From: Nitrospirota bacterium
GTDB taxonomy: Bacteria > Nitrospirota > Thermodesulfovibrionia > Thermodesulfovibrionales > JdFR-88
Direction of reading: 5' to 3'
Assembly (NCBI GenBank): GCA_021825295.1
Contig: JAKAHV010000002.1
Location: 70,189 to 134,188 of the forward strand
DNA length: 64,000 nt
Shown: positions 4,345 to 49,011 of the stretch, piece after piece
Numbering within the stretch: the first letter of the stretch is position 1
Layout of the letters: each line of letters opens with the position of its first letter
Notes under the pieces: model-generated
Databases searched by the model: none
What the model was told of the DNA's origin: nothing
Seen by the model: only the letters and a program-made list of their open reading frames with translations
Program-made: the position numbers and the translations under genes

Positions 4345-6429
4345 TCAGGTCCTTGCCTTTCTGCCAAGGAGGGCCCTGGCCTTCTCCAGGATGTTTTCCG
4401 CCGTGAACCCGAAATTCTCCATGTTTACCCGGCCTGGGGACGAGGCGCCGAACCGGTCTATCCCCATGACCGCGCCGTGGCCGACAGCCGGGGGGCCCGC
4501 GTACCTGTACCAGTCGCTTGTGGCGGCGGCTTCAATCGTTATCCTTTCCGTCACATCCGGCGGCAGGACCTCGTTCCGGTAGCTCGCGCTCTGCTCTTCA
4601 AATATCTCACGGCAGGGCATGCTTACCACGCGCGCCTTCACGCCCTCGCGGGTGAGCGTCTCATATGCCTCCAGGGCGGGATGCACCTCGGAGCCGGTCG
4701 CGATGAGGATGATATCCGGTTTCCCGGATGCGAGGCCCGCGAGTATGTAGGCACCCTTGTGGAGTCCGCTCGCGGGGGCGTACTTCCGCCTGTCTATGAT
4801 TGGCAGCTTCTGCCTCGAAAATATGAGCGATACCGGTCCGGCCCTGCGCTCAAGGGCGGCCGCCCACGCCTCCGATGTCTCGTTTGCGTCCGCCGGCCTT
4901 ATGACGGTCATGTTCGGTATCGCGCGCAGGCCGGGCAAATGCTCAATGGGCTGGTGGGTGGGGCCGTCCTCGCCCAGGCCGGCAGAATCATGCGTAAAAA
5001 CGTAGATGACATGGAGCCGCATCATGCAGGCAAGTCTAATCGCGGGCCGCATGTAATCGGAAAATATCAGAAACGTGCTCGCGAAGGGCAGCAGCCCCCC
5101 GTGCAGGGCAAGCCCGCTTGTGATGGCGCACATTGCGTGCTCCCGCACGCCGTAGGCGATGTTCGGGGCGCTGAAATCCCATTTGCCGGTAGAGCCCTGG
5201 ATGGCCTCCGTGCCCGCGTCCGGCGGCTCGAAGGTGCCGCGTCCCGCGAGGGCCGTGTAGGTTGAGGGGTTTAGGTCGCCTGAGCCGCCTATCAGGGAAG
5301 GGACATAATCATAGAGCGCGTTCAAGGTCATTCCGCCGGCCTTGCGGGTGGCCACGGGTTTGTCCCCGGCCTTGAATACCGGCAGCTTTTCCTTCCAGCC
5401 GGCCGCGTATTTTCCCCCCCACATCTGGTCCCACCTGGCCTTGAGGTCCGGATAGGCCTTTGCGTATGCCTCCATCTTCAGGTCCCAGTCTTCCCCGGCC
5501 CTCCGGCCCCGCGGCAGCGCCGCACCGAATATCTTCAGCGCCTCTTCAGGGATGTGGAAGGCGGGTTCCCGGGGCCAGCCCAGGTTCTGTTTTGTGAGCC
5601 TGACTTCTTCCTCTCCAAGCGGCGAGCCGTGGGACTCGAAGGTGTCCTGCTTGTGCGGGCTTCCGTATCCGATATGGGTCCTGACCATTATGAGGGAGGG
5701 CCGCTCCGTCTCCCGCTGCGCGACCTCGATTGCGCTGCCGATGGCCGCGATATCGTTGCCGTCCTCTATCTTCTGCACGTGCCAGCCGAATGCCTCGAAC
5801 CTTTTGGCGGCGTCTTCAGTGAAGGTAAGCTCGGTCGCTCCGGACAGGCTTATATGATTGTTGTCGTAGAGGTATATGAGCTTGCCAAGCTTGAAATGGC
5901 CGGCAAGCGATGCGGCCTCGCTTGATATGCCCTCCATGAGGTCCCCGTCGCTTGCAATAGCGTATGTATAGTGGTTTACTATCTCGTGCCCGGGGCGGTT
6001 GAAATTCGCCTGGAGGAATTTTTCCGCCATCGCCATCCCCACGCCGTCTCCAAAACCCTGCCCCAGAGGGCCGGTTGTGCACTCCACCCCGCGCTCAATA
6101 TCATATTCCGGATGGCCGGGGGTGTGGCTGCCCCACTGCCTGAAATTCTTCAGCTCCTCCATCGGCATGTCGTAGCCCGTCAGGTGGAGCATGGCGTACA
6201 GGAGGGCGGAGCCGTGGCCGGCCGAGAGGATGAAGCGGTCGCGGTCAGGCCATTTCGGGTTGGCGGGGTTGAATTTTAAAAAGCGGGTCCAAAGCACATA
6301 GGCCATCGGCGCGGCCCCCATGGGCATTCCGGGATGGCCGGAATTGGCCTTTTGCACCATGTCCACGGCCAGCATCCTTATTGTATTTATGCAGAGATTG
6401 TCGATATCCAAATGCATTCCTCCTCTCAT
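4345..6429 (-). CDS. tkt: Transketolase
   Basis: [31 protein letters not shown] and the [11 protein letters not shown] ThDP motif; 694 aa. The start may be the second ATG at 6417. Confidence 0.92.
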
Positions 6430-13609: not shown

Positions 13610-14902
13610 ATGAAAGCAACAAGGCTTGCTCTTGTCCTCATGGCCGCGGCCGCGCTCGTCTTCGCGTTTGCCGGCGCGGCATTCGCGTTCCATGACGGCG
13701 GCGTCGCGTTCTGCGAGGGCTGCCACACGATGCATAACTCGCTGGGCGGCGTGTCAAACAGCGTAAGCGGCTGGGGCAGCCCCGGCGTCACCCACAACCA
13801 GTATCTCCTGAAGGGCACGGACCCCAGCTCCACCTGCCTCAACTGCCACTCCCATTCGGGCGCGAGCTATCAGGTTCTGAGCACGGACGGCAGCGCCTAC
13901 ACTCCTGGCGGCGACTTCTACTGGCTCAGCCAGACCTACACCTATTCGCCCTGGTCCGGCAACACTTCGACCTCCCAGGGGCAGAACCACGGCCATACCG
14001 TGGTTGCGGCCGACTTCGCACTGAGCACGAGCACCATACTCACGGTGGCCCCCGGGGCCGGCACTCAGCCGGTGTATTACGCCAGCAACCTGGCCTGCAA
14101 CTCCTGCCACAACCCGCACGGCCGTGTAAACGGCGGCACCAGGAACGGCCAGGCGCCGGTTATGGGCTCCGGCTCTTACGGGAACACGGCTCCCAGCGGC
14201 ACGATACTTGGCAACTACAGGCTCCTCGCGGACACCTACTACGCACCTGGCGACCCGACCGTCTATGATCCGGCCCCGTCCGGTATCGCGGGCTATCCCC
14301 AGGCATTTACTTACATCGCCAACGCCCCCATAGCGGTAGCTCCGAATGTCGGCCACAGTGCCGCATCGATGCATGAGGTTGAGGGCCTGGGCACGACGGG
14401 TATCGAACACACCGACTACGGCTCGGGCGTCGCCGAGTGGTGCGGCAACTGCCACCAGGGTTTCGTGAACAACGCCGCAGACGGGACGAGCACTACCCAC
14501 AGGCACCCGGCCGGGGATACCGCCACTCTGGGCGCCACAATCGCCGGCTTCTATAATGAATATGTCTCGACCGGCAACATACACGGCACCAGCGCGAATG
14601 CCTACCTGCCTCTGGTCCCGTTTGAAAGGGGCGCGGGCGCAACCCTGAGCGCAAGCAGCACGGCGGGCCCGGACGGGGTTAAGTCGGCCGTCATGTGCCT
14701 TAGCTGCCACAGGGCGCACGCCACCGCCTTTGACGAGATGACCAGGTGGGACACCAGCGCCGATTTCATCTCCGCCTCGAGCGCTCTTATAGCCACCGCC
14801 AAGCCCTGGGCCGCCAACGCCCCGTACTACGGCTGGGACATCGTGGCCAATATGGGCTCTTACCAGAGAAGCCTCTGCAACAAGTGCCACATCCAGGATT
14901 AA
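13610..14902 (+). CDS. Secreted hexahaem c-type cytochrome, OmcS-family paralog 3
   Basis: AFA|FHDGGVAFCEGCHTMHN, six CxxCH, YQRSLCNKCHIQD. Long runs are nucleotide-identical to paralog 2. Confidence 0.85.
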   Translation: MKATRLALVLMAAAALVFAFAGAAFAFHDGGVAFCEGCHTMHNSLGGVSNSVSGWGSPGVTHNQYLLKGTDPSSTCLNCHSHSGASYQVLSTDGSAYTPGGDFYWLSQTYTYSPWSGNTSTSQGQNHGHTVVAADFALSTSTILTVAPGAGTQPVYYASNLACNSCHNPHGRVNGGTRNGQAPVMGSGSYGNTAPSGTILGNYRLLADTYYAPGDPTVYDPAPSGIAGYPQAFTYIANAPIAVAPNVGHSAASMHEVEGLGTTGIEHTDYGSGVAEWCGNCHQGFVNNAADGTSTTHRHPAGDTATLGATIAGFYNEYVSTGNIHGTSANAYLPLVPFERGAGATLSASSTAGPDGVKSAVMCLSCHRAHATAFDEMTRWDTSADFISASSALIATAKPWAANAPYYGWDIVANMGSYQRSLCNKCHIQD

Positions 14903-14927
14903 TCACCGTGGCTTAGAGGTATCTATC

Positions 14928-14957
14928 GGGGGCGGGGTTTGTTCCGCCCCCTTTTTT
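14928..14957 (+). terminator. Rho-independent terminator 1 after paralog 3
   Basis: 8-bp stem gggggcgg/ccgccccc followed by TTTTTT. Confidence 0.7.
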
Positions 14958-14963
14958 CCATCA

Positions 14964-14994
14964 GGGGCCGGCTCACCGCCGGCCCCTCTTTTTT
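14964..14994 (+). terminator. Rho-independent terminator 2 after paralog 3 (tandem)
   Basis: 9-bp stem ggggccggc/gccggcccc followed by tcTTTTTT. Confidence 0.7.
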
Positions 14995-15214
14995 GGTGAT
15001 AGGAAATTTTAGAACCTCAAAAATAAAATTTTATTGTTTGCATTTCCCTTTGGAATTTGTTGAAAGGCCGTCATACCGGTCCCGCCGGGGCGGGATATCC
15101 AGTGACTTTGCCGTGGAGCCTTAACGTCACTGGATTCCGGATTACTAAATCTGGAATGACGGCTTAAAATTCAATAGATACCCTGCAACTTGCTGCAGGG
15201 TGATTCATTTCCTC

Positions 15215-15243
15215 TTGGTATCCCGCCCGTTTTTCACTATAAT
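15215..15243 (+). promoter_or_regulatory. Sigma-70-like promoter candidate far upstream of paralog 4
   Basis: TTGGTA-N17-TATAAT read directly. It lies about 445 nt upstream of ATG 15688, with REP-like hairpins in between. A similar TATAATGGA occurs at 17709 upstream of paralog 5. Confidence 0.3.
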
Positions 15244-15687
15244 GGAGTGGATTGCGCATCCCCAAAGTTTGACTTTTTCCCTTTTCGCATGCCCCGGGGG
15301 CATGCCCACAGTGCCTGCTGGTTTATGAATTTCTGTATGTTTTTCAATAGGCTTGAATATGTGATTTTCAGGGAGTTCTAACAGGATGCGGAAAAACTAT
15401 TTTCGAGCCTTTTATCCGTAATTCCCGCGAAGGCGGGAATCCAGGTTTTTCAATGACTTATATTTAAAGTGGATTCCAAGCCGGGGAATGACGAATTTGA
15501 GACTTTTTCAACAGCCTGCTAATCAATCGTCTTCATCGGGGAAAGGAGGTGGCTTAAAAAAGATAAAAAATCGGGGCCCTTTAAAAGTTTCACAGGGAGA
15601 AGCGGGGCCTGCCGGGGGCTTGCTGCCGGCGGGCATGGAGAAACAGCGGGGAAAAGGGCATATATCGATAAGGGAGGGTATTTATTG

Positions 15688-16977
15688 ATGAAAGCTCTGA
15701 AGACCGGACTCGTCCTGCTGGCCGCGGTCTTTCTGGTTGCCGCATTGGGCGGGACTGCCATCGGCTTCCATGACGGCGGCGTGGCCTACTGCGAGGGCTG
15801 CCACACGATGCACAACTCGCTTGGCGGCGTGTCAAACAGCATTCATGGCGCGGGCACCCCCGGCACCGCTTTAAACCAGTATCTTCTCAAGGGTACGGAC
15901 CCAAGCTCCACCTGCCTGAACTGCCACTCGCAGCCGACCGGCAACAACATCCAGGTGCTGAGCCTGGACGGCACCGCCTATACGCCGGGCGGCGACTTCT
16001 ACTGGCTCAAGGAGACCTACACCTATTCTCCATGGGCCGGCGCCACCCTCACCTCAAACGGGCAGAACCACGGCCATACCGTGGTGGCAATCGACTTCTC
16101 CCTCACAACGAGCACCATACTTACCGTGGCCCCGGGGCGGGGCACCCAGCCGGAGTATTATTCCAGCAACCTGGCCTGCAACTCCTGCCATAACCCGCAC
16201 GGCCGGGTCGACGGAGGCACCAGGAGCGGCAAGGTGGGGCCGGTCGCGCAGTCCGGCTCCTACGGCTACGCCCCCATAGCCGGGACCGTAAACGGCAACT
16301 ACAGGCTCCTCGCGGACATCGGCTACGCCCCCGGCGACCCCGCCGTCTTCGGTCCGCAACCCTCCGGCGTGGCAGGCTATCCCCAGGCGTTTACTTACAT
16401 CGCGAACGCCCCGGTGGCGGTCTCGCCTATCAACTTCAAGGAGGTTGAGGGCCTTGGCGCGGCCGGCATAGAGCACGTCGATTACGGGACGGGCGTTGCC
16501 GAGTGGTGCGCCAACTGCCACCAGGGATTTTTGAACGACGCCTCTCCCCACGGCACATCCACCTACCACCGCCATCCGGCCGGCGACACCGCCAGGCTCG
16601 GCGGCCTCGCAGACCTCTATAACTCATACGTCAAATCTGGCGTCTATACCGGCGCGCAGGCGACCTCCTATCTGCCCCTTGTGCCATTTGAAAGGGGGAC
16701 AGCCACAGGGCTGGCCGCCAACAGCCCGGCGGGGCCGCTTGCGGGCGGGGCGGGCAGCGAAGCCGTCATGTGCCTTAGCTGCCACAGGGCGCACGCGAGC
16801 GCATTCGACGAGATGACAAGGTGGGACACGACCGCGGAGTTCATGTCCGCATCGAGCGCGCTGATCGCGACCGCCAGGCCCTGGGCCACCAACGCGCCTT
16901 ATTACGGCTGGGACATAGTGGGCCAGATGGGCTCCTATCAGAGGAACCTCTGCAACAAGTGCCATGTGCAGGATTAA
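15688..16977 (+). CDS. Secreted hexahaem c-type cytochrome, OmcS-family paralog 4
   Basis: ATG 15688, preceded in frame by TTG 15685. AIG|FHDGGVAYCEGCHTMHN, six CxxCH, YQRNLCNKCHVQD. Confidence 0.85.
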   Translation: MKALKTGLVLLAAVFLVAALGGTAIGFHDGGVAYCEGCHTMHNSLGGVSNSIHGAGTPGTALNQYLLKGTDPSSTCLNCHSQPTGNNIQVLSLDGTAYTPGGDFYWLKETYTYSPWAGATLTSNGQNHGHTVVAIDFSLTTSTILTVAPGRGTQPEYYSSNLACNSCHNPHGRVDGGTRSGKVGPVAQSGSYGYAPIAGTVNGNYRLLADIGYAPGDPAVFGPQPSGVAGYPQAFTYIANAPVAVSPINFKEVEGLGAAGIEHVDYGTGVAEWCANCHQGFLNDASPHGTSTYHRHPAGDTARLGGLADLYNSYVKSGVYTGAQATSYLPLVPFERGTATGLAANSPAGPLAGGAGSEAVMCLSCHRAHASAFDEMTRWDTTAEFMSASSALIATARPWATNAPYYGWDIVGQMGSYQRNLCNKCHVQD

Positions 16978-17063
16978 CCCCTCGCTCTTCCGCCGGTGTG
17001 ACCCCTCTCCCACCGGGAGAGGGTTTGGGTGAGGGGGACCAAGCCCCAAGGTGAGAATGAACC

Positions 17064-17108
17064 GGGGCCGGCAATTTTTTATTTTTAGTTGCCGGCCCCC
17101 ATCTTTTG
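17064..17108 (+). terminator. Hairpin terminator after paralog 4
   Basis: 11-bp stem ggggccggcaa/ttgccggcccc with an AT-rich loop, then a weak T-run (atcttttg). Confidence 0.5.
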
Positions 17109-17336
17109 CGCCTCCTTCTGCTCCGATAAATCCGTCATTCCCCGGCTTGACCGGGGAGTTCACGTTCCGCGCCTCCTTCAGTCTCGATTGCATCGTTAGA
17201 GTCACCAAGGCGGCCATAAGTAACGCGGCACAGTTTGTCATCGTCCCGAAAATGCCCCTTCCCCTGCCTTGTGCCTGGTATCCGCCCGGCCCTTTCGTTC
17301 GGCTCGCGCGGTTCCGGACGAGTACAAACGGCGCTG

Positions 17337-17590
17337 GGCAAAAGGCGGATGGGAACATGGCTCGCATCATTCTCGCCGGCCATCCCTGGCCGGCTCCGAG
17401 GCTTTTGCCTATCCGGACGTCCATGTCCGGATTACGGCAAAAAAATCCGCTCCCATGCCCCCATCCGCCTTTTGCCTTACACGCGATTCGCTTATACCCG
17501 GTCGTTGGAGGAGTCGCCGGACGGAAAAAAAGGATTGAGAGATCCCGCCAAGGCGGGACAGCGGCAGAAAAAAAGCAGCAAAAAAAGAAA
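17337..17590. repeat. Repeat family A, internal-module copy (no TIRs)
   Basis: It shares ggcaaaaggcggatgggaacatggctcgcatc...atccgccttttgccttacacgcgattcgcttataccc and gcggcagaaaaaaagc with 43820-44070, and carries an extra insertion in the hairpin. Confidence 0.5.
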
Positions 17591-17970
17591 GATTATAGCG
17601 CACGGGCTTTTCGCCTTAAAGTTGTTCTGATACCCCCAACCATTTATTTATCTTTTACCGCGTATTTTGCCGCACTATCACCCCATGGCATATTGCCTTC
17701 CATTCAGGTATAATGGATAAATTACAATTTTAGGTTGTGAATGCGTGAAAAGGCGCAGGATGTGGAATTGAGGTTCACAAAAGGCTTTTTGTACCGGTAA
17801 GGGGGGTGATTGCAAAAAGGGGAAAAAGGCCAGCCCGCGGGCTTTATCGCCCGGCGGGCAGTCTCCGGCCCGTCTTTGGCGGGAGGCTCAGGAAGATATC
17901 CGGATGCGTGACGGGGCCCGGGGGAAGAAACAATGGGGGAAAATAAATCCTTCAATCAGGGAGGGTATTG

Positions 17971-19260
17971 ATGAAAGCATTGAAGATCTGGCTCATACTC
18001 ATGGCCGCGGCCTTGGCCGTTTTCGCCTTTAACGGCGCGGCCCTTGCGTTCCATGACGGCGGCGTGGCCTACTGCGAGGGCTGCCACACGATGCATAACT
18101 CGGTAGGCGGGGCTGTCGTCAATACACCTGGCGGGGTAAAGGGCACTGTCGGCAACGGCCTCAATGAGTATCTACTGCAGGGCTCGGACCCGAGCTCCAC
18201 CTGCCTCAACTGCCACGCGAAAAATACGATGGGCGCGAACATCCAGGTGCTCAGCTCTGACGGCACCGCCTATACGCCGGGCGGCGACTTTTACTGGGTC
18301 AACAAGACCTACACCTATTCCCCGTGGGCCGGCGCAAACATGACCTCGGAGGGGTATAACCACGGCCACAGCGTCATAGCCTCCGACTTCGGCCTTTCCG
18401 AGGACTCTCACTTCGCGGGCAATGTGGGACCTGGCGGGACCTATCCCGCCTCCAACCTGGCCTGCAACTCCTGCCACAACCCGCACGGCCGCGTCAACGG
18501 GGGCACAAGAAACAGCGAGGGGCCGGTGAAGGCTTCCGGCTCCTACGGCCCGGGTTTCTGCACTCCTGACGCCAGCGGGATATGCGGCAACTACAGGCTC
18601 CTGGCGGACGGCCTCTACAATGCCGGCGACCCCGCTGTCTTCGGAAGCTCCTCAGCGCAGGGTTTCCCGGTGCAAGGCTATCACTACACCGCCAACGCGC
18701 CCGTTGCCGTGGCGCCGCAGGATTTCCGGGAAAAGGAGGACGGCTACGGCACAGGTTCCGGCATCGAGCACGTGGATTACGGCACCGGCATCGCCGAGTG
18801 GTGCGCCAACTGCCACGGCGCTTTCCTGAACAACAGCGGAGGGACGGGCACGGGCTACCACCGCCACCCGGCGGGCGACAGCGCCAAGCTTGGCGGCCTG
18901 GCCAGCCTCTACAACTCATATGTAAAGTCCGGCGACTATGCAGGCGACAGCAGCAAATCCTATCTGCCGCTGGTGCCTTTTGAAAGGGGCGTGGCGACGG
19001 GGCTCGTCGCAAACAGCCCCGCGGGGCCTGACGGCGCAAACGCGGCCGTCATGTGCCTGAGCTGCCACAGGGCGCACGCCTCGGCATTCGACGAGATGAC
19101 CAGGTGGGACACCAGCGCGGAGTTCATGTCCGCCTCTAGCGCGCTTATCGCCACCTCGAAGCCATGGGCCGCCAACGCCCCGTATTACGGCTGGGACATA
19201 GTGGGACAGATGGGCTCCTACCAGAGGAACCTCTGCAACAAGTGCCACGTGCAGGATTAA
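17971..19260 (+). CDS. Secreted hexahaem c-type cytochrome, OmcS-family paralog 5
   Basis: ALA|FHDGGVAYCEGCHTMHN, six CxxCH, YQRNLCNKCHVQD. An extra Cys pair (GFCTPDASGIC) is unique to this copy. Confidence 0.85.
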   Translation: MKALKIWLILMAAALAVFAFNGAALAFHDGGVAYCEGCHTMHNSVGGAVVNTPGGVKGTVGNGLNEYLLQGSDPSSTCLNCHAKNTMGANIQVLSSDGTAYTPGGDFYWVNKTYTYSPWAGANMTSEGYNHGHSVIASDFGLSEDSHFAGNVGPGGTYPASNLACNSCHNPHGRVNGGTRNSEGPVKASGSYGPGFCTPDASGICGNYRLLADGLYNAGDPAVFGSSSAQGFPVQGYHYTANAPVAVAPQDFREKEDGYGTGSGIEHVDYGTGIAEWCANCHGAFLNNSGGTGTGYHRHPAGDSAKLGGLASLYNSYVKSGDYAGDSSKSYLPLVPFERGVATGLVANSPAGPDGANAAVMCLSCHRAHASAFDEMTRWDTSAEFMSASSALIATSKPWAANAPYYGWDIVGQMGSYQRNLCNKCHVQD

Positions 19261-45067: not shown

Positions 45068-47115
45068 AAGAGCTTCTCTTTGAGATAGGGGTGGAGGAAA
45101 TCCCCGCAAGATTTCTGCCGGGGGCGATGGAAAATCTGAAGTCCTCCGCCAAAAGGCGCTTCGAGGAAAACGGGCTTTCATTTTCCTCGATCGATGTCTT
45201 TGCCACCCCGAGGCGTCTTGCCCTGATGGTTCAGGGCCTGCCCGAAAGGCAGCCCGACAGGGTCAGGATGGTCTTCGGCCCTCCGAAAAAGATCGCCTTC
45301 GACAGGGATGGAAAGGCGACCAGGGCGCTTACCGGTTTTGCGGATTCGCTGGGCGTAAGGCCGGAGGACCTTGTGGAGAAGGAGAAAAACTCCGGGCTTT
45401 ACATGGCGGCCCTCATCCAGGAGAAAGGCAGCCCGCTGAAGGACGTCCTGCCTGGTATGCTGAAAGAGATACTGCTTTCGCTTGGCTTCCCTAAATCAAT
45501 GAGGTGGGGCGAAGGGAGCCTGAGGTTTGTAAGGCCCGTAAGGTGGCTGACCGCGCTTCTGGGCTCCGAGATACTGGGATTTGAGATTGACGGAATAAAG
45601 AGCGGAAACATAAGCAGGGGCCACAGGTTCCTCTCGTCGGGCGCCTTCCAGTTGAGGGAGGCGAAGTCGTACGAAAGCGTCATGAAATCAAGTTTCGTGA
45701 TAGTAAATCCGGCCGTAAGGCGGGAGATCATCATGGGGGAGCTTGAGCGGCTTGCCGCAACCGCGGGCGGCAGGCCCGTCCTGGACCCCGGCCTCCTGGA
45801 TACGGTCATAAACCTGGTCGAATATCCCGTCGGCATGCTCTGCGAATTCCCGAAAGAGTACCTAGAGCTTCCGGAAGAGCTCCTTGTGACGGTGATGCAG
45901 GACCATCAGAAATATTTCGCCGTGAAGGATGAAAAAGACAGGCTCCTCAATTATTTCATAGTCATCGCCAACACGCTCAGGGAAAACTACTTCATGGTAA
46001 AGGCGGGCTCTGAAAGGGTGATAAGGGCGCGTTTCGAAGACGCAAGGTTCTATTACCATGAGGACCAGAACCGCTCGCTCCGGCAGCGGGTGGATGAGCT
46101 GAGGAAAGTGGCATTCCATGAGCGGCTTGGCAGCCTTGAGGACAAGGTCAGGCGCATGGAAAGCCTTGCCGTCCATATTGCCGGGGCTGTTTGCCCGGGA
46201 TCGGTCGAGCTGGCAAGGCAGGCCGCGCTCATCTCAAAGAGCGACCTGGTTACCGGCGTTGTAAGGGAGTTTCCAGAGCTTCAGGGAATAATGGGCAGAT
46301 ACTACGCCTTAAACGACGGGGAGCCGGAAGAAGTGGCCCAGGCCATCCTGGAGCAATACCTCCCAAGGCACATGGGCGACAGCCTCCCGTCAACGGACAT
46401 AGGCGCGGTCCTGGCGCTGGCGGACAGGCTGGACAATATCGCCTCTTTCTTCCACCTCGGGCTTGCACCGACCGGCTCGGAAGACCCATTCGCCCTGAGG
46501 AGGCAGACCATCGCCTGCGCCCAGATCCTTATTGAGGGGGGCTTCGAACTCGCGATTGAAGAGCTTGCCGGGGTGGCGGTGCGCGGGCTCAAGGCAGCAG
46601 ATGCGCTTAAAACGGAGATAATGCGCTTTTTCGAATCCAGGCTGCCCCAGATATTCGAGGCGAGGGGTTTTGAAAGCGATTTGACGGACTGCCTGCTTCC
46701 CTTGTCATCCGGGTTGCCCCTGAAGTATGTCCTTGAAAGGGGCAACGAATTGAAACGGTTCCGGCAGTCTCCATCCTGGGGCCCCTTTTTGGCCGCCATA
46801 AAAAGGGTAAAAAATATCCTTCCAAAGGACAAAAAGCTGGCGCCTGTCGACAGCGGCCTCTTCAGGGAGCCCGCTGAAAGGGAATTGTTTGAGAAGCTGT
46901 CCGCCCTTGAGGCATCACTTGGCGTCCTTTTGCCGGAACGCAGCTATGAGAAGGCGCTCCGGGGCCTCTCCGGCTTGACCGAAACGGTAAACGCTTTTTT
47001 TGATGCCGTGCTCATAATGGACAAGGACGAACGCATAAGGGAGAACAGGCTCTCTCTTCTTGGCGGCATATGGGGGCTTGCGCGCAAATTCTGCGACTTT
47101 TCAAGGCTCTCCTAG
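45064..47115 (+). CDS. glyS: Glycyl-tRNA synthetase beta subunit
   Basis: [18 protein letters not shown]-terminus; 683 aa; overlaps glyQ by 4 nt. Confidence 0.92.
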
Positions 47116-47138
47116 CGGCTTGATTCGAGAATAATTGT

Positions 47139-47168
47139 TTGACAAGGCCGCGGTTTTTTTGATATAAA
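47139..47168 (+). promoter_or_regulatory. Sigma-70 promoter candidate for tRNA-Asn
   Basis: TTGACA-N18-TATAAA ends 10 nt before the tRNA 5' end. Confidence 0.55.
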
Positions 47169-47178
47169 ATATAGATGT

Positions 47179-47251
47179 TCCTGGGTAGCTCAGCCGGCAG
47201 AGCGGGTGGCTGTTAACCACTTGGTCGGGGGTTCGAGTCCCTCCCCAGGAG
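47179..47251 (+). tRNA. tRNA-Asn (anticodon GTT)
   Basis: Cloverleaf folded by hand: acceptor tcctggg/cccagga, D arm gctc-agccggca-gagc, anticodon arm ggtgg-ctGTTaa-ccact, T arm ggggg-ttcgagt-ccctc, discriminator g. Confidence 0.9.
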
Positions 47252-47272
47252 CTTACAAACCTGAGCAAGAAA

Positions 47273-47551
47273 ATGCCTTTCTATGCGTATATCTTACAAA
47301 GCGAATCCTCGGGCGGTTATTATTGCGGATCAACTTCTGATATAGCCAGAAGGATTCAGCAGCATAACGACTCCAAATATAAGCTCACTTTGACTACGAA
47401 GCGTTTTCCTGGCCCCTGGAAGTTGATCTATTGCGAAGAACATTGCGATAGAAAGTCGGCTATGAAACGTGAAAAATACATCAAAGCAAGAGGTATTAGC
47501 CGTTTCCTGGCTGAATTTCAGCCGGCAGAGTCCCGCCCGAGGCGGGATTAA
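47273..47551 (+). CDS. Small stand-alone GIY-YIG nuclease-domain protein, copy 1
   Basis: FYAYILQSESSGGYYCGSTSDIARRIQQHN...KREKYIK fits the GIY...YIG...R...E pattern of YhbQ-like GIY-YIG proteins of 90-100 aa. The last 17 codons or so are read from tRNA-like DNA. Confidence 0.75.
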   Translation: MPFYAYILQSESSGGYYCGSTSDIARRIQQHNDSKYKLTLTTKRFPGPWKLIYCEEHCDRKSAMKREKYIKARGISRFLAEFQPAESRPRRD

Positions 47552-47586
47552 CCACTTGGTCGGGGGTTCGAGTCCCTCCCCAGGAG
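47505..47586 (+). other. tRNA-Asn-derived tRNA-like element 1 (acceptor and T arms kept, anticodon arm replaced by a GC hairpin)
   Basis: tcctggc...tcagccggcagag-tcccgcc cga ggcggga-tt-aaccacttggtcgggggttcgagtccctccccaggag. 37 nt at the 3' end and 13 nt of the D loop are identical to the tRNA. The D stem is destroyed and there is no anticodon loop. Confidence 0.7.
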
Positions 47587-47607
47587 CTTACAAACCTGAG
47601 CAAGAAA

Positions 47608-47886
47608 ATGCCTTTCTATGCGTATATCTTACAAAGCGAATCCTCGGGCGGTTATTATTGCGGATCAACTTCTGATATAGCCAGAAGGATTCAGCAGCAT
47701 AACGACTCCAAATATAAGCTCACTTTGACTACGAAGCGTTTTCCTGGCCCCTGGAAGTTGATCTATTGCGAAGAACATTGCGATAGAAAGTCGGCTATGA
47801 AACGTGAAAAATACATCAAAGCAAGAGGTATTAGCCGTTTCCTGGCTGAATTTCAGCCGGCAGAGTCCCGCCCGAGGCGGGATTAA
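47608..47886 (+). CDS. Small stand-alone GIY-YIG nuclease-domain protein, copy 2 (identical)
   Basis: Identical 92-aa translation to 47273-47551. Confidence 0.75.
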   Translation: MPFYAYILQSESSGGYYCGSTSDIARRIQQHNDSKYKLTLTTKRFPGPWKLIYCEEHCDRKSAMKREKYIKARGISRFLAEFQPAESRPRRD

Positions 47887-47921
47887 CCACTTGGTCGGGG
47901 GTTCGAGTCCCTCCCCAGGAG
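47840..47921 (+). other. tRNA-Asn-derived tRNA-like element 2
   Basis: Same sequence as 47505-47586, followed by a different flank (gttttcctctc). Confidence 0.7.
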
Positions 47922-47950
47922 TTTTCCTCTCTTGACTTTCAATTTCGGCT

Positions 47951-48171
47951 CTACCGGGTTTTCTGTGGGTATTTCCCCCTCCCTTGAGGGGGGGGGATGA
48001 AGGGGAGGGTGTTCTATGCTTCTGCAGCCGGTTCAGTATGTTGACCGCCGTCCAGCTCGATTACAATCTTCTTTGAGAGGAGATAACAGCCTTCCCCGCC
48101 CTCTCAACCCTGTGCCCCTGCCATCTTCCTCAGGAAAAACTATTTTAACCCATACTAAACCCTGAAGAGCC
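47951..48171 (-). repeat. Repeat family D copy 3 (ends conserved, middle replaced)
   Basis: It shares ctaccgggttttctgtgggtat..ccctcccttgaggg and gagataacagccttccccgccctctcaaccctgtgcccctgccatcttcctcagg...gaagagcc with 37934-38195. Confidence 0.6.
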
Positions 48172-48282
48172 TCAATTTCAATTTCCTGGGTGTCCGGTTT
48201 CGTTTCCTTTTCGCATGTACCCGAAGCGGCAGCCTCTTTTTTGTTATAATCCTCACCTGATGAGAGCGTTTCTGGTGCCGGG

Positions 48283-49011
48283 ATGAGACTTCCACAGCGG
48301 ATGAAATGGTCGCATGTAAGGCGGCTTTACGAGGCGATTGAGCCCCGCCTGAAGGCGTCTCCCGTAAAACTCGAAAAGCCCGACGGCGGCCGGGTCCTCG
48401 TCCTCGCGCCCCATATAGACGATGATGTAATCGGCTGCGGCGGGACACTGGCAAAACATGCCGCCGCCGGGGATGAGGTCATGGCCCTGTACTTCGCCGA
48501 TTGCACGCAACCCCGGATACTGGAAGCAAAAGCCGCGGCCTCCATTATTGGCATCGGCAGGCTCGAGTTTCTGGAATTCGGCTCCAAGCAACTTTACGGC
48601 CGCCGGAGGGAGGCGGCGCAAAAACTGAAGGAAACATTTGAAAAATTCAGGCCGCATACGGTGTATCTGCCCTCCCTGTTTGACCGGCACAACGACCATC
48701 TTGCCGTAAACCACATCCTCTGCGGCCTTTTCGGTGAGACGCGCCTCGACTTTACCGTCTGCTCATATGAGGTCTGGACCCCCCTTGTGCCGAATCTTGT
48801 CGTGGACGTAACCTCCACGATGGACAAAAAAAGAGAGGCCATCTCCAAATACGCCAGCCAGCTTGCCTCCAACGACTGGCTTGACGCGGCTGTCTGCCTT
48901 AACCGCTACCGTGCCGTGGTCTGCGGAGCTGGCCGGTATGCAGAGGTTTTTTTCATGCAATCGATGGAAAAATACTTCGATCTCTGGAGGGATGTTTACC
49001 CCGGTGTCTAG
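48283..49011 (+). CDS. PIG-L/LmbE-family deacetylase
   Basis: VLVLAPHIDDDVIGCGGTLAKH matches the (A)HPDD-x-GxGG signature region. Confidence 0.75.
   Translation: MRLPQRMKWSHVRRLYEAIEPRLKASPVKLEKPDGGRVLVLAPHIDDDVIGCGGTLAKHAAAGDEVMALYFADCTQPRILEAKAAASIIGIGRLEFLEFGSKQLYGRRREAAQKLKETFEKFRPHTVYLPSLFDRHNDHLAVNHILCGLFGETRLDFTVCSYEVWTPLVPNLVVDVTSTMDKKREAISKYASQLASNDWLDAAVCLNRYRAVVCGAGRYAEVFFMQSMEKYFDLWRDVYPGV

Follow-up and report, generated by a model that had tools for sequence, protein, structure and literature searches.

A candidate Ssn-type nuclease and hairpin module, tandemly repeated within copies of tRNA-Asn in a Nitrospirota bacterium

The DNA described here is a 64-kb stretch (referred to throughout as the window) of contig JAKAHV010000002.1, from the metagenome-assembled genome of a Nitrospirota bacterium (GCA_021825295.1). 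Both ARAGORN and Rfam find a single tRNA gene in it, an intact tRNA-Asn(GTT), and this is followed immediately by two units that each encode a small GIY-YIG nuclease and close with a partial copy of the same tRNA. On balance we favor the interpretation that these are two tandem modules, each composed of a nuclease of the Ssn type and its cognate hairpin, which reside in duplicated tRNA-Asn copies and would amplify by nick-induced recombination, as suggested by analogy with systems characterized elsewhere.

The intact tRNA gene lies at 47179–47252 on the forward strand, has no encoded CCA, and matches Rfam family RF00005 with 65.1 bits. The promoter-like sequence TTGACA-N18-TATAAA noted 5′ of it in an initial annotation, made by a model from the nucleotide sequence, is present on the same strand at 47139–47168, and it is kept in two relatives described below (L083 and L084); a consensus promoter scan passes over it, because that scan accepts only −10 hexamers that end in T. 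Tandem Repeats Finder reports a repeat with a period of 335 bp and 2.1 copies on the forward strand between 47213 and 47921 (100% matches, no indels), which extends from the TTAA of the tRNA anticodon loop to the end of a third tRNA 3′ part, in agreement with the two base-identical 335-bp units previously described as directly following the tRNA. Each unit regenerates the 3′ part of tRNA-Asn, as had been proposed with a length of 37 nt; the repeated part measures 39 nt and is present in three exact copies; the 29-nt T-arm/acceptor segment GGTCGGGGGTTCGAGTCCCTCCCCAGGAG likewise occurs exactly three times in the window, where none would be expected.

Each module consists of a short spacer, the nuclease gene, and a pseudo-tRNA-Asn in which a 17-nt hairpin stands in for the 5′ strand of the anticodon stem. 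In the first module the spacer cttacaaacctgagcaagaa(a) runs on the forward strand from the tRNA 3′ end to the ATG (47253–47272) and is unlike the host trailer; because it contains no terminator, transcription from the tRNA promoter probably reads through into the nuclease gene. The first open reading frame (ORF 1; 47273–47551, forward strand) encodes a 92-residue, single-domain nuclease of the Ssn/UPF0213/Slx1-like kind, and the stand-alone GIY-YIG assignment made initially is borne out by the Pfam match (E=4.9e-16); the ORF is also more AT-rich than its surroundings, as had been remarked (45.5% GC versus 58.1% for the window). The end of the ORF is read successively from a 12-nt D-arm remnant, cagccggcagag (47519–47530, forward strand, codons QPAE), which matches the host tRNA D-arm at 12 of 12 positions; from the hairpin TCCCGCC-CGA-GGCGGGA, with a 7-bp stem and a 3-nt loop (47531–47547, with no strand assigned; −15.3 kcal/mol, z −3.7); and from the TTAA that begins a second tRNA-Asn 3′ part (TTAA...CCAGGAGc, 47548–47587, forward strand), identified by the repeat and word-copy searches. 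Immediately next to the hairpin is the anticodon-loop GTTAA, whose TAA is the ORF 1 stop codon. The second unit contains, all on the forward strand except for the strandless hairpin, ORF 2 (47608–47886, identical to ORF 1 by sequence comparison), a second copy of the D-arm remnant (47854–47865, read from the sequence), hairpin 2 (47866–47882, identical to hairpin 1 and recovered in a hairpin-core scan), and the third tRNA-Asn 3′ part (47883–47921), located by the repeat search and followed, on comparison with L084, by the host trailer TTTTCCTC.

The end of the ORF had been interpreted as a degenerate tRNA-Asn copy, and for the 12-nt D-arm and the TTAA with its stop this stands; these are the only clearly tRNA-derived sequences inside the ORF. 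The 17 nt between them have no tRNA counterpart, take the place of approximately tRNA positions 25–34 (the 5′ strand of the anticodon stem), and are instead a conserved and covarying hairpin, the central element of the tail. A likeness of the sequence 'ttcctgg' to the acceptor stem coincides with conserved R-F-L codons and may be a matter of chance. A class II-like tRNA fold was also considered for the tail and was dropped, since the 5′ acceptor strand is missing in most relatives.

The Pfam GIY-YIG domain covers residues 3–71 of the 92, with no auxiliary or second domain, and the residues Y6, Y17, G19, R27, H31 and E67 are invariant among 43 aligned sequences, showing that the catalytic residues are intact and the ORF is not decayed. 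In the AlphaFold model (pLDDT 83.9 overall) residues 1–82 are folded and the last 10 disordered. The best relatives in the PDB are the UPF0213 protein 1zg2 (profile E=1.1e-9; Foldseek E=8.4e-5) and Slx1, and stand-alone Slx1-like/UPF0213 domains (PDB 1zg2, 1ywl) have been surveyed by Dunin-Horkawicz et al. (2006, PMC1564403); these are the closest matches in both sequence and fold and represent the minimal form of the domain, but unlike the unit here they have no described association with a tRNA or a hairpin. I-TevI (E=0.34) and UvrC are marginal fold matches, and membership of the I-TevI type was rejected, as the match to NCBIfam TIGR01453 (group I intron endonuclease) scores 16.4 bits, below the cut-off of 56. 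An exact look-up of the 92-residue protein finds none on record, protein alignment against the viral contigs scanned returns no relative, and the plasmid collection contains only distant homologs with 34–40% identity.

Homologs with about 60% identity are found in metagenomes, and many of them end in the residues AQSVESRxRRD, which are the translated D-arm and hairpin with a variable loop codon. Scanning one genome per species yielded 155 relatives confirmed by tblastn, and we analysed the best 80 of these with a locus of about 5 kb each (loci are designated here by L numbers). The hosts belong to at least eight phyla and include Desulfobacterota, Hydrogenedentota, Acidobacteriota, Zixibacteria, Nitrospirota, Ignavibacteria, Methylomirabilota and Gemmatimonadota, together with others. 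A tRNA-Asn(GTT) gene is present within 60 of the 80 loci, and at 48 of them it shares the strand of the ORF and precedes the latter by 200 nt or less, usually by about 45 nt; no other tRNA type recurs in this set. The unit therefore does recur beside tRNAs elsewhere, with tRNA-Asn(GTT) alone as the recurring type, and nothing that the initial annotation had named as counting against it was encountered.

A hairpin is found at the ORF end in 59 of the 80 loci, with TTAA following it in 48 of these. Three positions in the tRNA-like sequence, each in a different frame, serve as the stop codon: the U8-A9-G10 TAG, the TAG within GGTAGAG, and the anticodon-loop TAA. This argues that it is the DNA element that is under selection and not the peptide tail. 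Both the tail D-arm and the 3′ part match the tRNA-Asn of their own host better than those of other loci (34 loci; permutation p≤1e-4 for each). Of 23 loci, 16 have a repeat that goes no further than the 3′ end of the tRNA, and the spacer preceding the ORF is unlike what follows the last tail.

Comparison of GlyS sequences places the window within the Nitrospirota and identifies two relatives, L083 (84% identical) and L084 (76% identical), in which the order glyS–tRNA-Asn–PIG-L and the promoter-like sequence are kept and the unit is absent; the trailer that follows the tRNA in L084, TTTTTTTTCC, resembles that which follows the last tail in the window. The module is thus an insertion that is lacking from two congeners, represented by GCA_027328945.1 and a contig of ERZ27233565, as anticipated from the sequence. 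Its neighbors are glyQ and glyS upstream and genes for a PIG-L deacetylase and a glycosyltransferase downstream; no tyrosine- or serine-recombinase is encoded in the 335-bp unit, which has the one 92-residue ORF, nor among the neighboring genes, consistent with the integrase-free element initially described. Also without a counterpart in L083 and L084 is the stretch of about 300 nt (47922–48219) that leads from the last tail to the conserved region upstream of PIG-L; it includes an inverted repeat of C- and G-runs, ccccctcccttgagggggggg, at approximately 47974–47996.

Tandem amplification, previously proposed from the window, recurs independently in other genomes. Locus L019 contains five units and L050 four, with two units each in L048, L058 and L070, and the units are essentially identical within each array; the L019 array lies on a 5.0-Mb contig and L058 is from an isolate, Desulfoferrobacter suflitae. 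Identical tandem arrays have arisen separately in several lineages. These arrays bear on the possibility that the two-copy tandem in the window is an assembly artefact and that the true genome contains one unit or some other number. The 100% identity of the units and the metagenomic origin of the assembly are compatible with such an artefact, as are two further assemblies of the same organism (GlyS 100% identical), of which L082 stops inside the first ORF and L081 diverges right after the tRNA; in addition, a contig end is no more than 900 nt away at 23 of the 80 related loci, and contig ends are where repeats break assemblies. However, short-read assemblers usually collapse tandem repeats and rarely invent them, identical arrays of two to five units are present in independent genomes including the 5.0-Mb contig and the isolate, and the unit and its family-wide pattern stand even if the copy number is wrong. 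We consider an artefact very unlikely. The L081 assembly (GCA_027348725.1) is identical to the window at 5189–5389, up to the tRNA end, save for one T-loop base (A for G), beyond which CCA and a terminator are followed by unrelated sequence as far as the contig end. It could represent another allele, a further tRNA-Asn locus that the assembler joined on, or a different inserted element.

The hairpin itself is informative as to what is being maintained. We find 60 distinct inserts between GAG and TTAA, with a modal stem of 7 bp and a modal loop of 3 nt, and pairing holds in 97.8% of cells among the 46 distinct variants that are 17 nt long. Double-sided changes number 21, compared with 3.7±1.6 in shuffled data, and the covariation score was matched in none of 500 shuffles, even as the five outer stem pairs are nearly invariant in sequence. 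Stem pair 6 is A-T in all five of the proteins with the motif WKxRK, which stands after the catalytic Glu and defines a protein subclade, versus none of the 51 others with a clean hairpin, where it is C-G. Selection thus acts on the structure of the hairpin, which changes in step with the protein subclade. At locus L033 there are two tandem units whose ORFs are only 49% identical, the first being 85% identical to the L062 ORF, and each unit carries the hairpin variant of its own subclade; this points both to a cognate pair of protein and site and to independent acquisitions at one tRNA. By analogy with the nucleases discussed below we presume that the 17-nt hairpin is the cognate site of the nuclease. 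Over 138 distinct instances, TT follows the hairpin in 78% and AG or AA precedes it in 78%.

Several other arrangements of these hairpins were seen among the related loci. In a second layout the hairpin follows CTGTTAA (GTGGCTGTTAA/hairpin/TTGG), flanking the palindromic GTTAAC from its other side (L058 2750–2800, L041, L065, L071, L072 and L075), and the tails of L014, L023, L057 and L078 have hairpins on both sides of the TTAA. Other tails contain a recurrent module of about 22 nt, with a consensus close to GGTTGAGGCnnnnGCCGAAA and followed by a second hairpin, inserted just before the T-loop TTCGAG (L002 2790–2830, L010 2793–2832, L013, L020, L030, L040, and L077 2793–2830); a hammerhead-like reading of a recurrent 'GGTTGAGGC..GCCGAAA' module in tails outside the window was rejected by eye, as it lacks the core CUGANGA. 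Some loci contain, to the left of the intact tRNA-Asn, tandem arrays without an ORF, of two to six units of about 85–100 bp each, in which a unit is made up of the tRNA leader and the tRNA 5′ part, with one or two hairpins replacing D-stem or anticodon-stem strands (L002 1830–2380, L041 1982–2421, L049 1840–2100, L074 1780–2180 and L077 2200–2380); in L049 the whole anticodon arm is replaced by a hairpin, and the window has no such array. Finally, L001 (2250–3150) and L044 (2250–2930) show a mirror layout, in which the nuclease unit lies upstream of the intact tRNA-Asn and is itself preceded by a second copy of the tRNA promoter and by a 5′ pseudo-tRNA with a hairpin, such that the gene would be driven by the promoter copy.

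A hairpin joined to a tRNA-like tail might in principle act in RNA, either as an element for 3′ processing or stability of the nuclease messenger RNA or by forming a regulatory RNA that resembles a tRNA. With no terminator between them, the tRNA and the unit probably share a transcript; the whole tail folds stably (−39.6 kcal/mol, z −2.3), and the flanking AG...TT could lengthen the stem through a G-U pair. Against this, most relatives lack the 5′ acceptor strand, cleavage by RNase P would take off the stop codon, and truncated pseudo-tRNAs that have no ORF carry the same hairpins to the left and right of the tRNA; moreover, a permissive Rfam search of 46500–48500 matched the intact tRNA alone, so that the tail fits no described RNA family, and SsnA, the Ssn nuclease described below, does not bind RNA (PMC11893778). 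We regard a role at the RNA level as highly improbable.

Among the closest known systems is the Ssn family, represented by SsnA of Neisseria meningitidis (CDD cd10448) and described by Chenal et al. (Nat Commun 2025, PMC11893778). SsnA is a 94-residue, single-domain GIY-YIG protein with catalytic residues Y6, Y17 and E64, which binds the NTS hairpin CGTCATTCCCGCGMAVGCGGGAATCYRG as single-stranded DNA (ssDNA) only, on one strand, and cuts a few nucleotides upstream of it; Ssn genes are usually flanked by such hairpins, and the authors noted a layout like that of an insertion sequence (IS) and suspected an IS-like origin (PMC11893778). The module shares with this family a single-domain GIY-YIG protein of about 92–94 residues with Tyr6, Tyr17 and Glu64/67, a GC-rich hairpin beside the gene with a conserved stem and a free loop, the co-variation of protein and hairpin and, to judge from the further hairpins in the window, probably a scattering of such repeats through the genome. 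Both NTS and the module have the palindrome core TCCCGC...GCGGGA, whereas the flanks (AG/AA ... TT) differ. The bottom strand of the module hairpin, GGTTAA/TCCCGCC..GGCGGGA/C, resembles the NTS sequence CGTCAT/TCCCGCG..GCGGGAAT/C, including the C after the palindrome, which is critical for SsnA binding (PMC11893778). The family profile also matches a GIY-YIG protein from a Rhizobium plasmid (probability 96.3%, E=1.9e-9, 42% identity) whose gene is flanked by hairpins that fit the published SRM consensus perfectly. The differences are that the hairpin here is built into tRNA-Asn copies, where it replaces an anticodon-stem strand and abuts GTTAA, that the HGTCWY... flank consensus is unmet, and that the repeats around the gene are direct rather than inverted and form tandem arrays. 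Neither the Ssn paper (PMC11893778), in which the word 'tRNA' is absent, nor a later preprint citing SsnA, whose text mentions neither tRNA nor tRNA-Asn, makes the connection, and our literature searches found no paper linking GIY-YIG or Ssn nucleases with tRNA-Asn.

Two other kinds of repeat with this core were seen on metagenome contigs. L088, L118, L132 and L194 contain a different family with fixed flanks, AAAACC/TCCCGCC..GGCGGGATT/TTACAAAA, and L115 and L198 contain canonical TGTCATCC...GGATGACA motifs of the Ssn type.

Hairpins with the core TCCCGC-N3-9-GCGGGA are also in excess in the window, with six occurrences against 0.10 expected, two of them in the units and four elsewhere (1031–1046, 15080–15095, 15423–15438 and 17543–17558, from the core scan). 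The sequence CGTAATTCCCGCGAAGGCGGGAATCCAG at 15417–15444 is one base off the Neisseria NTS consensus, and CGTCAT flanks are found at 15066, 15161-, 15493- and 17133. Hairpins of this group lie in the intergenic regions of three paralogous genes for 430-residue multihaem cytochromes (MtrC/MtrF-like, with paired CXXCH) at 13610–19260. A loose scan of the window for CGT[CA]AT...ATCCAG gives eight matches versus 5.3 expected and thus no overall enrichment. The same-core hairpins elsewhere in the window suggest that the nuclease may serve a genome-wide system too.

This raises the question of whether the enzyme is a domesticated host Ssn protein that acts on dispersed hairpins, for example by restricting or shaping the recombination of incoming ssDNA as in Neisseria, with tRNA-Asn as a parking spot where expression is good and the gene is tolerated, and with the duplication as incidental. 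The excess of same-core hairpins, the near-perfect NTS with CGTCAT flanks at the others, and the preservation of catalytic residues over deep divergence are all in keeping with this, and the positions between cytochrome paralogs recall the way in which NTS cluster around genes for surface proteins (PMC11893778). What this reading fails to account for is the tRNA-Asn address across many phyla, the building of the hairpin into pseudo-tRNA copies, the absence of the gene from the site in two close relatives, the foreign composition, and the stacking of different subclades at one tRNA. As the sole account we think it unlikely, but a host role is compatible with, and not exclusive of, the modular interpretation that we favor.

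A mechanism for the module can be proposed by analogy with the biochemistry of SsnA and NTS and with SegB, a second GIY-YIG enzyme considered below. When the region becomes single-stranded, through replication, through transcription or in incoming transforming DNA, the hairpin would fold; the nuclease would bind it and make a nick a few nucleotides 5′ of it. The bottom strand is the one probably nicked, in ...CCAAGTGGTTAA, because the flank there reads GGTTAA, similar to the CGTCAT of NTS. A cut on that strand beside the hairpin would fall inside the tRNA-derived repeat, and the direct repeats of tRNA origin could then recombine homologously to repair the break. Repair out of register would gain or lose 335-bp units and so yield a tandem array, and at a naive tRNA-Asn gene the tRNA sequence, being universally conserved, would act as portable homology arms, such that the module is copied in and an intact tRNA is regenerated. 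A mechanism of this type would explain why the unit is specific for tRNA-Asn, why the tails match their host and why the spacers do not resemble the host trailer, and would also account for the arrays and the stacked subclades.

SegB is a free-standing GIY-YIG homing endonuclease encoded within a tRNA gene cluster of T4/T6 phages (Chihara et al., Nat Commun 2026, PMC13096335), and together with phage recombination functions it drives tandem amplification of tRNA-Tyr and segB in arrays that are unstable (PMC13096335). The placement of a GIY-YIG gene beside a tRNA, and the tandem repetition of a segment containing a tRNA and the nuclease, are the same here. SegB differs, however, in being a phage enzyme with extra domains, many double-stranded DNA (dsDNA) sites and no isotype preference, whereas here a chromosomal gene encodes a bare catalytic domain of the Slx1/UPF0213/Ssn type that is paired with a hairpin and specific for tRNA-Asn. 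The initial annotation knew of no mechanism for such a unit, and the work on the Ssn family and on SegB now provides a framework. Its suggestion of a minimal selfish or homing-type unit riding on a tRNA agrees with the insertion and amplification that we observe, but homing remains an analogy, the protein being like Slx1, UPF0213 and Ssn and not like I-TevI or the Seg enzymes.

A strict version of homing would have the nuclease cut the anticodon region of double-stranded tRNA-Asn genes, with the hairpin destroying the target and repair copying the gene. The presence/absence polymorphism (L083 and L084 being empty), the target-derived repeats that flank the gene, and the replacement of a segment covering the palindromic GTTAAC of the anticodon loop would all be expected from such a process, and SegB does cut inside tRNA genes and amplify tRNA and segB together (PMC13096335). 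Yet the protein is a bare catalytic domain of 82 residues without a DNA-binding domain, its fold ranks UPF0213 and Slx1 at the top and I-TevI only marginally, and no relatives appear in the viral contigs; in addition, an intact and cleavable tRNA-Asn is always present in cis, and a scar that merely destroys a target needs no conserved and covarying hairpin that co-evolves with the protein. Homing of this kind seems to us decidedly unlikely.

The likeness to integrase-dependent islands and prophages is in the insertion at a tRNA gene, the direct repeat of the tRNA 3′ part, and the regeneration of an intact tRNA. The module differs from these in having no integrase, in the 335-bp size of its unit, in the D-arm kept in the tail, in a repeat boundary that coincides with the hairpin substitution, and in the incomplete 5′ copies that related loci have on the left of the tRNA. 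With REP/BIME-RAYT and IS200/IS605 systems it has in common a small nuclease gene and short hairpin repeats that are recognized as ssDNA and multiply; unlike it, however, those systems employ HUH enzymes, which form covalent intermediates and can join DNA, and have no tRNA-specific home.

A number of observations weigh against the interpretation of tandem Ssn-type modules, or limit it. GIY-YIG nucleases hydrolyze DNA and cannot join it, and because of this every step after the nick would depend on host recombination. By both sequence and fold the protein is about equally near to UPF0213 and to Slx1, and its Ssn likeness is drawn from the published description of SsnA and from the Rhizobium homolog rather than from an alignment with SsnA or cd10448. 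The SRM consensus, HGTCWYN(0-2)YYVSBRHN(0-5)WNVSBRGN(0-2)RNCYNB, has no matches in the window and one in the 80 loci, which is at the level of chance; the regular expression used does find the NTS test sequence and five sites around the Rhizobium homolog. In a metagenome scan for the bare hairpin, TCCCGCC-N3-5-GGCGGGATT, 117 of 120 stretches are terminators or other repeats without a nuclease. The hairpin core is thus common in terminators and is not diagnostic by itself; within the context GAG/hairpin/TTAA the nuclease gene is present in three of three cases, compared with none of the remaining 117. For the tRNA-Asn clade the choice of strand, the position of the cut and the restriction to ssDNA are presumed from what is described for its better known counterparts, and the two-unit copy number in the window comes from a single assembly. 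The model also leaves unexplained the substitution of hairpins for stem strands at the D-loop, the variable loop and the T-loop of pseudo-tRNAs in other genomes, and in its simple form does not predict the ORF-less 5′ pseudo-tRNA arrays to the left of the tRNA.

What the module contributes can be separated into known and new. The pairing of a nuclease with a hairpin appears to be of the Ssn kind, and what seems to be new is the nesting of an Ssn-like module within copies of tRNA-Asn, along with which it would amplify. A bolder proposal, which we advance tentatively and regard as possible though doubtful, is that an Ssn-type nuclease and its hairpin constitute an autonomous mobile element that has no transposase, integrase or reverse transcriptase and would spread solely by nicking ssDNA next to its own hairpin and by host recombination; tRNA-Asn would be both the landing site, with its GTTAA completing the cleavage site, and the source of the homology arms, and the duplication of the target would leave the host with a working tRNA.

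The Ssn family was described only in 2025, and the mobility of the hairpin-gene-hairpin layout was no more than a speculation of its discoverers. In practical terms, the locus is a source of assembly breaks and of pseudo-tRNA arrays at tRNA-Asn in environmental genomes, and it offers naturally matched pairs of nuclease and hairpin for ssDNA tools. For the biology of the family, the tRNA-Asn loci add a fixed address, empty and filled sites, stacked acquisitions, recurrent arrays, and hairpins that switch with the protein subclade; with a 335-bp unit, one 92-residue protein and a defined target, they make the questions of whether Ssn modules are selfish, and of how they spread, directly testable.

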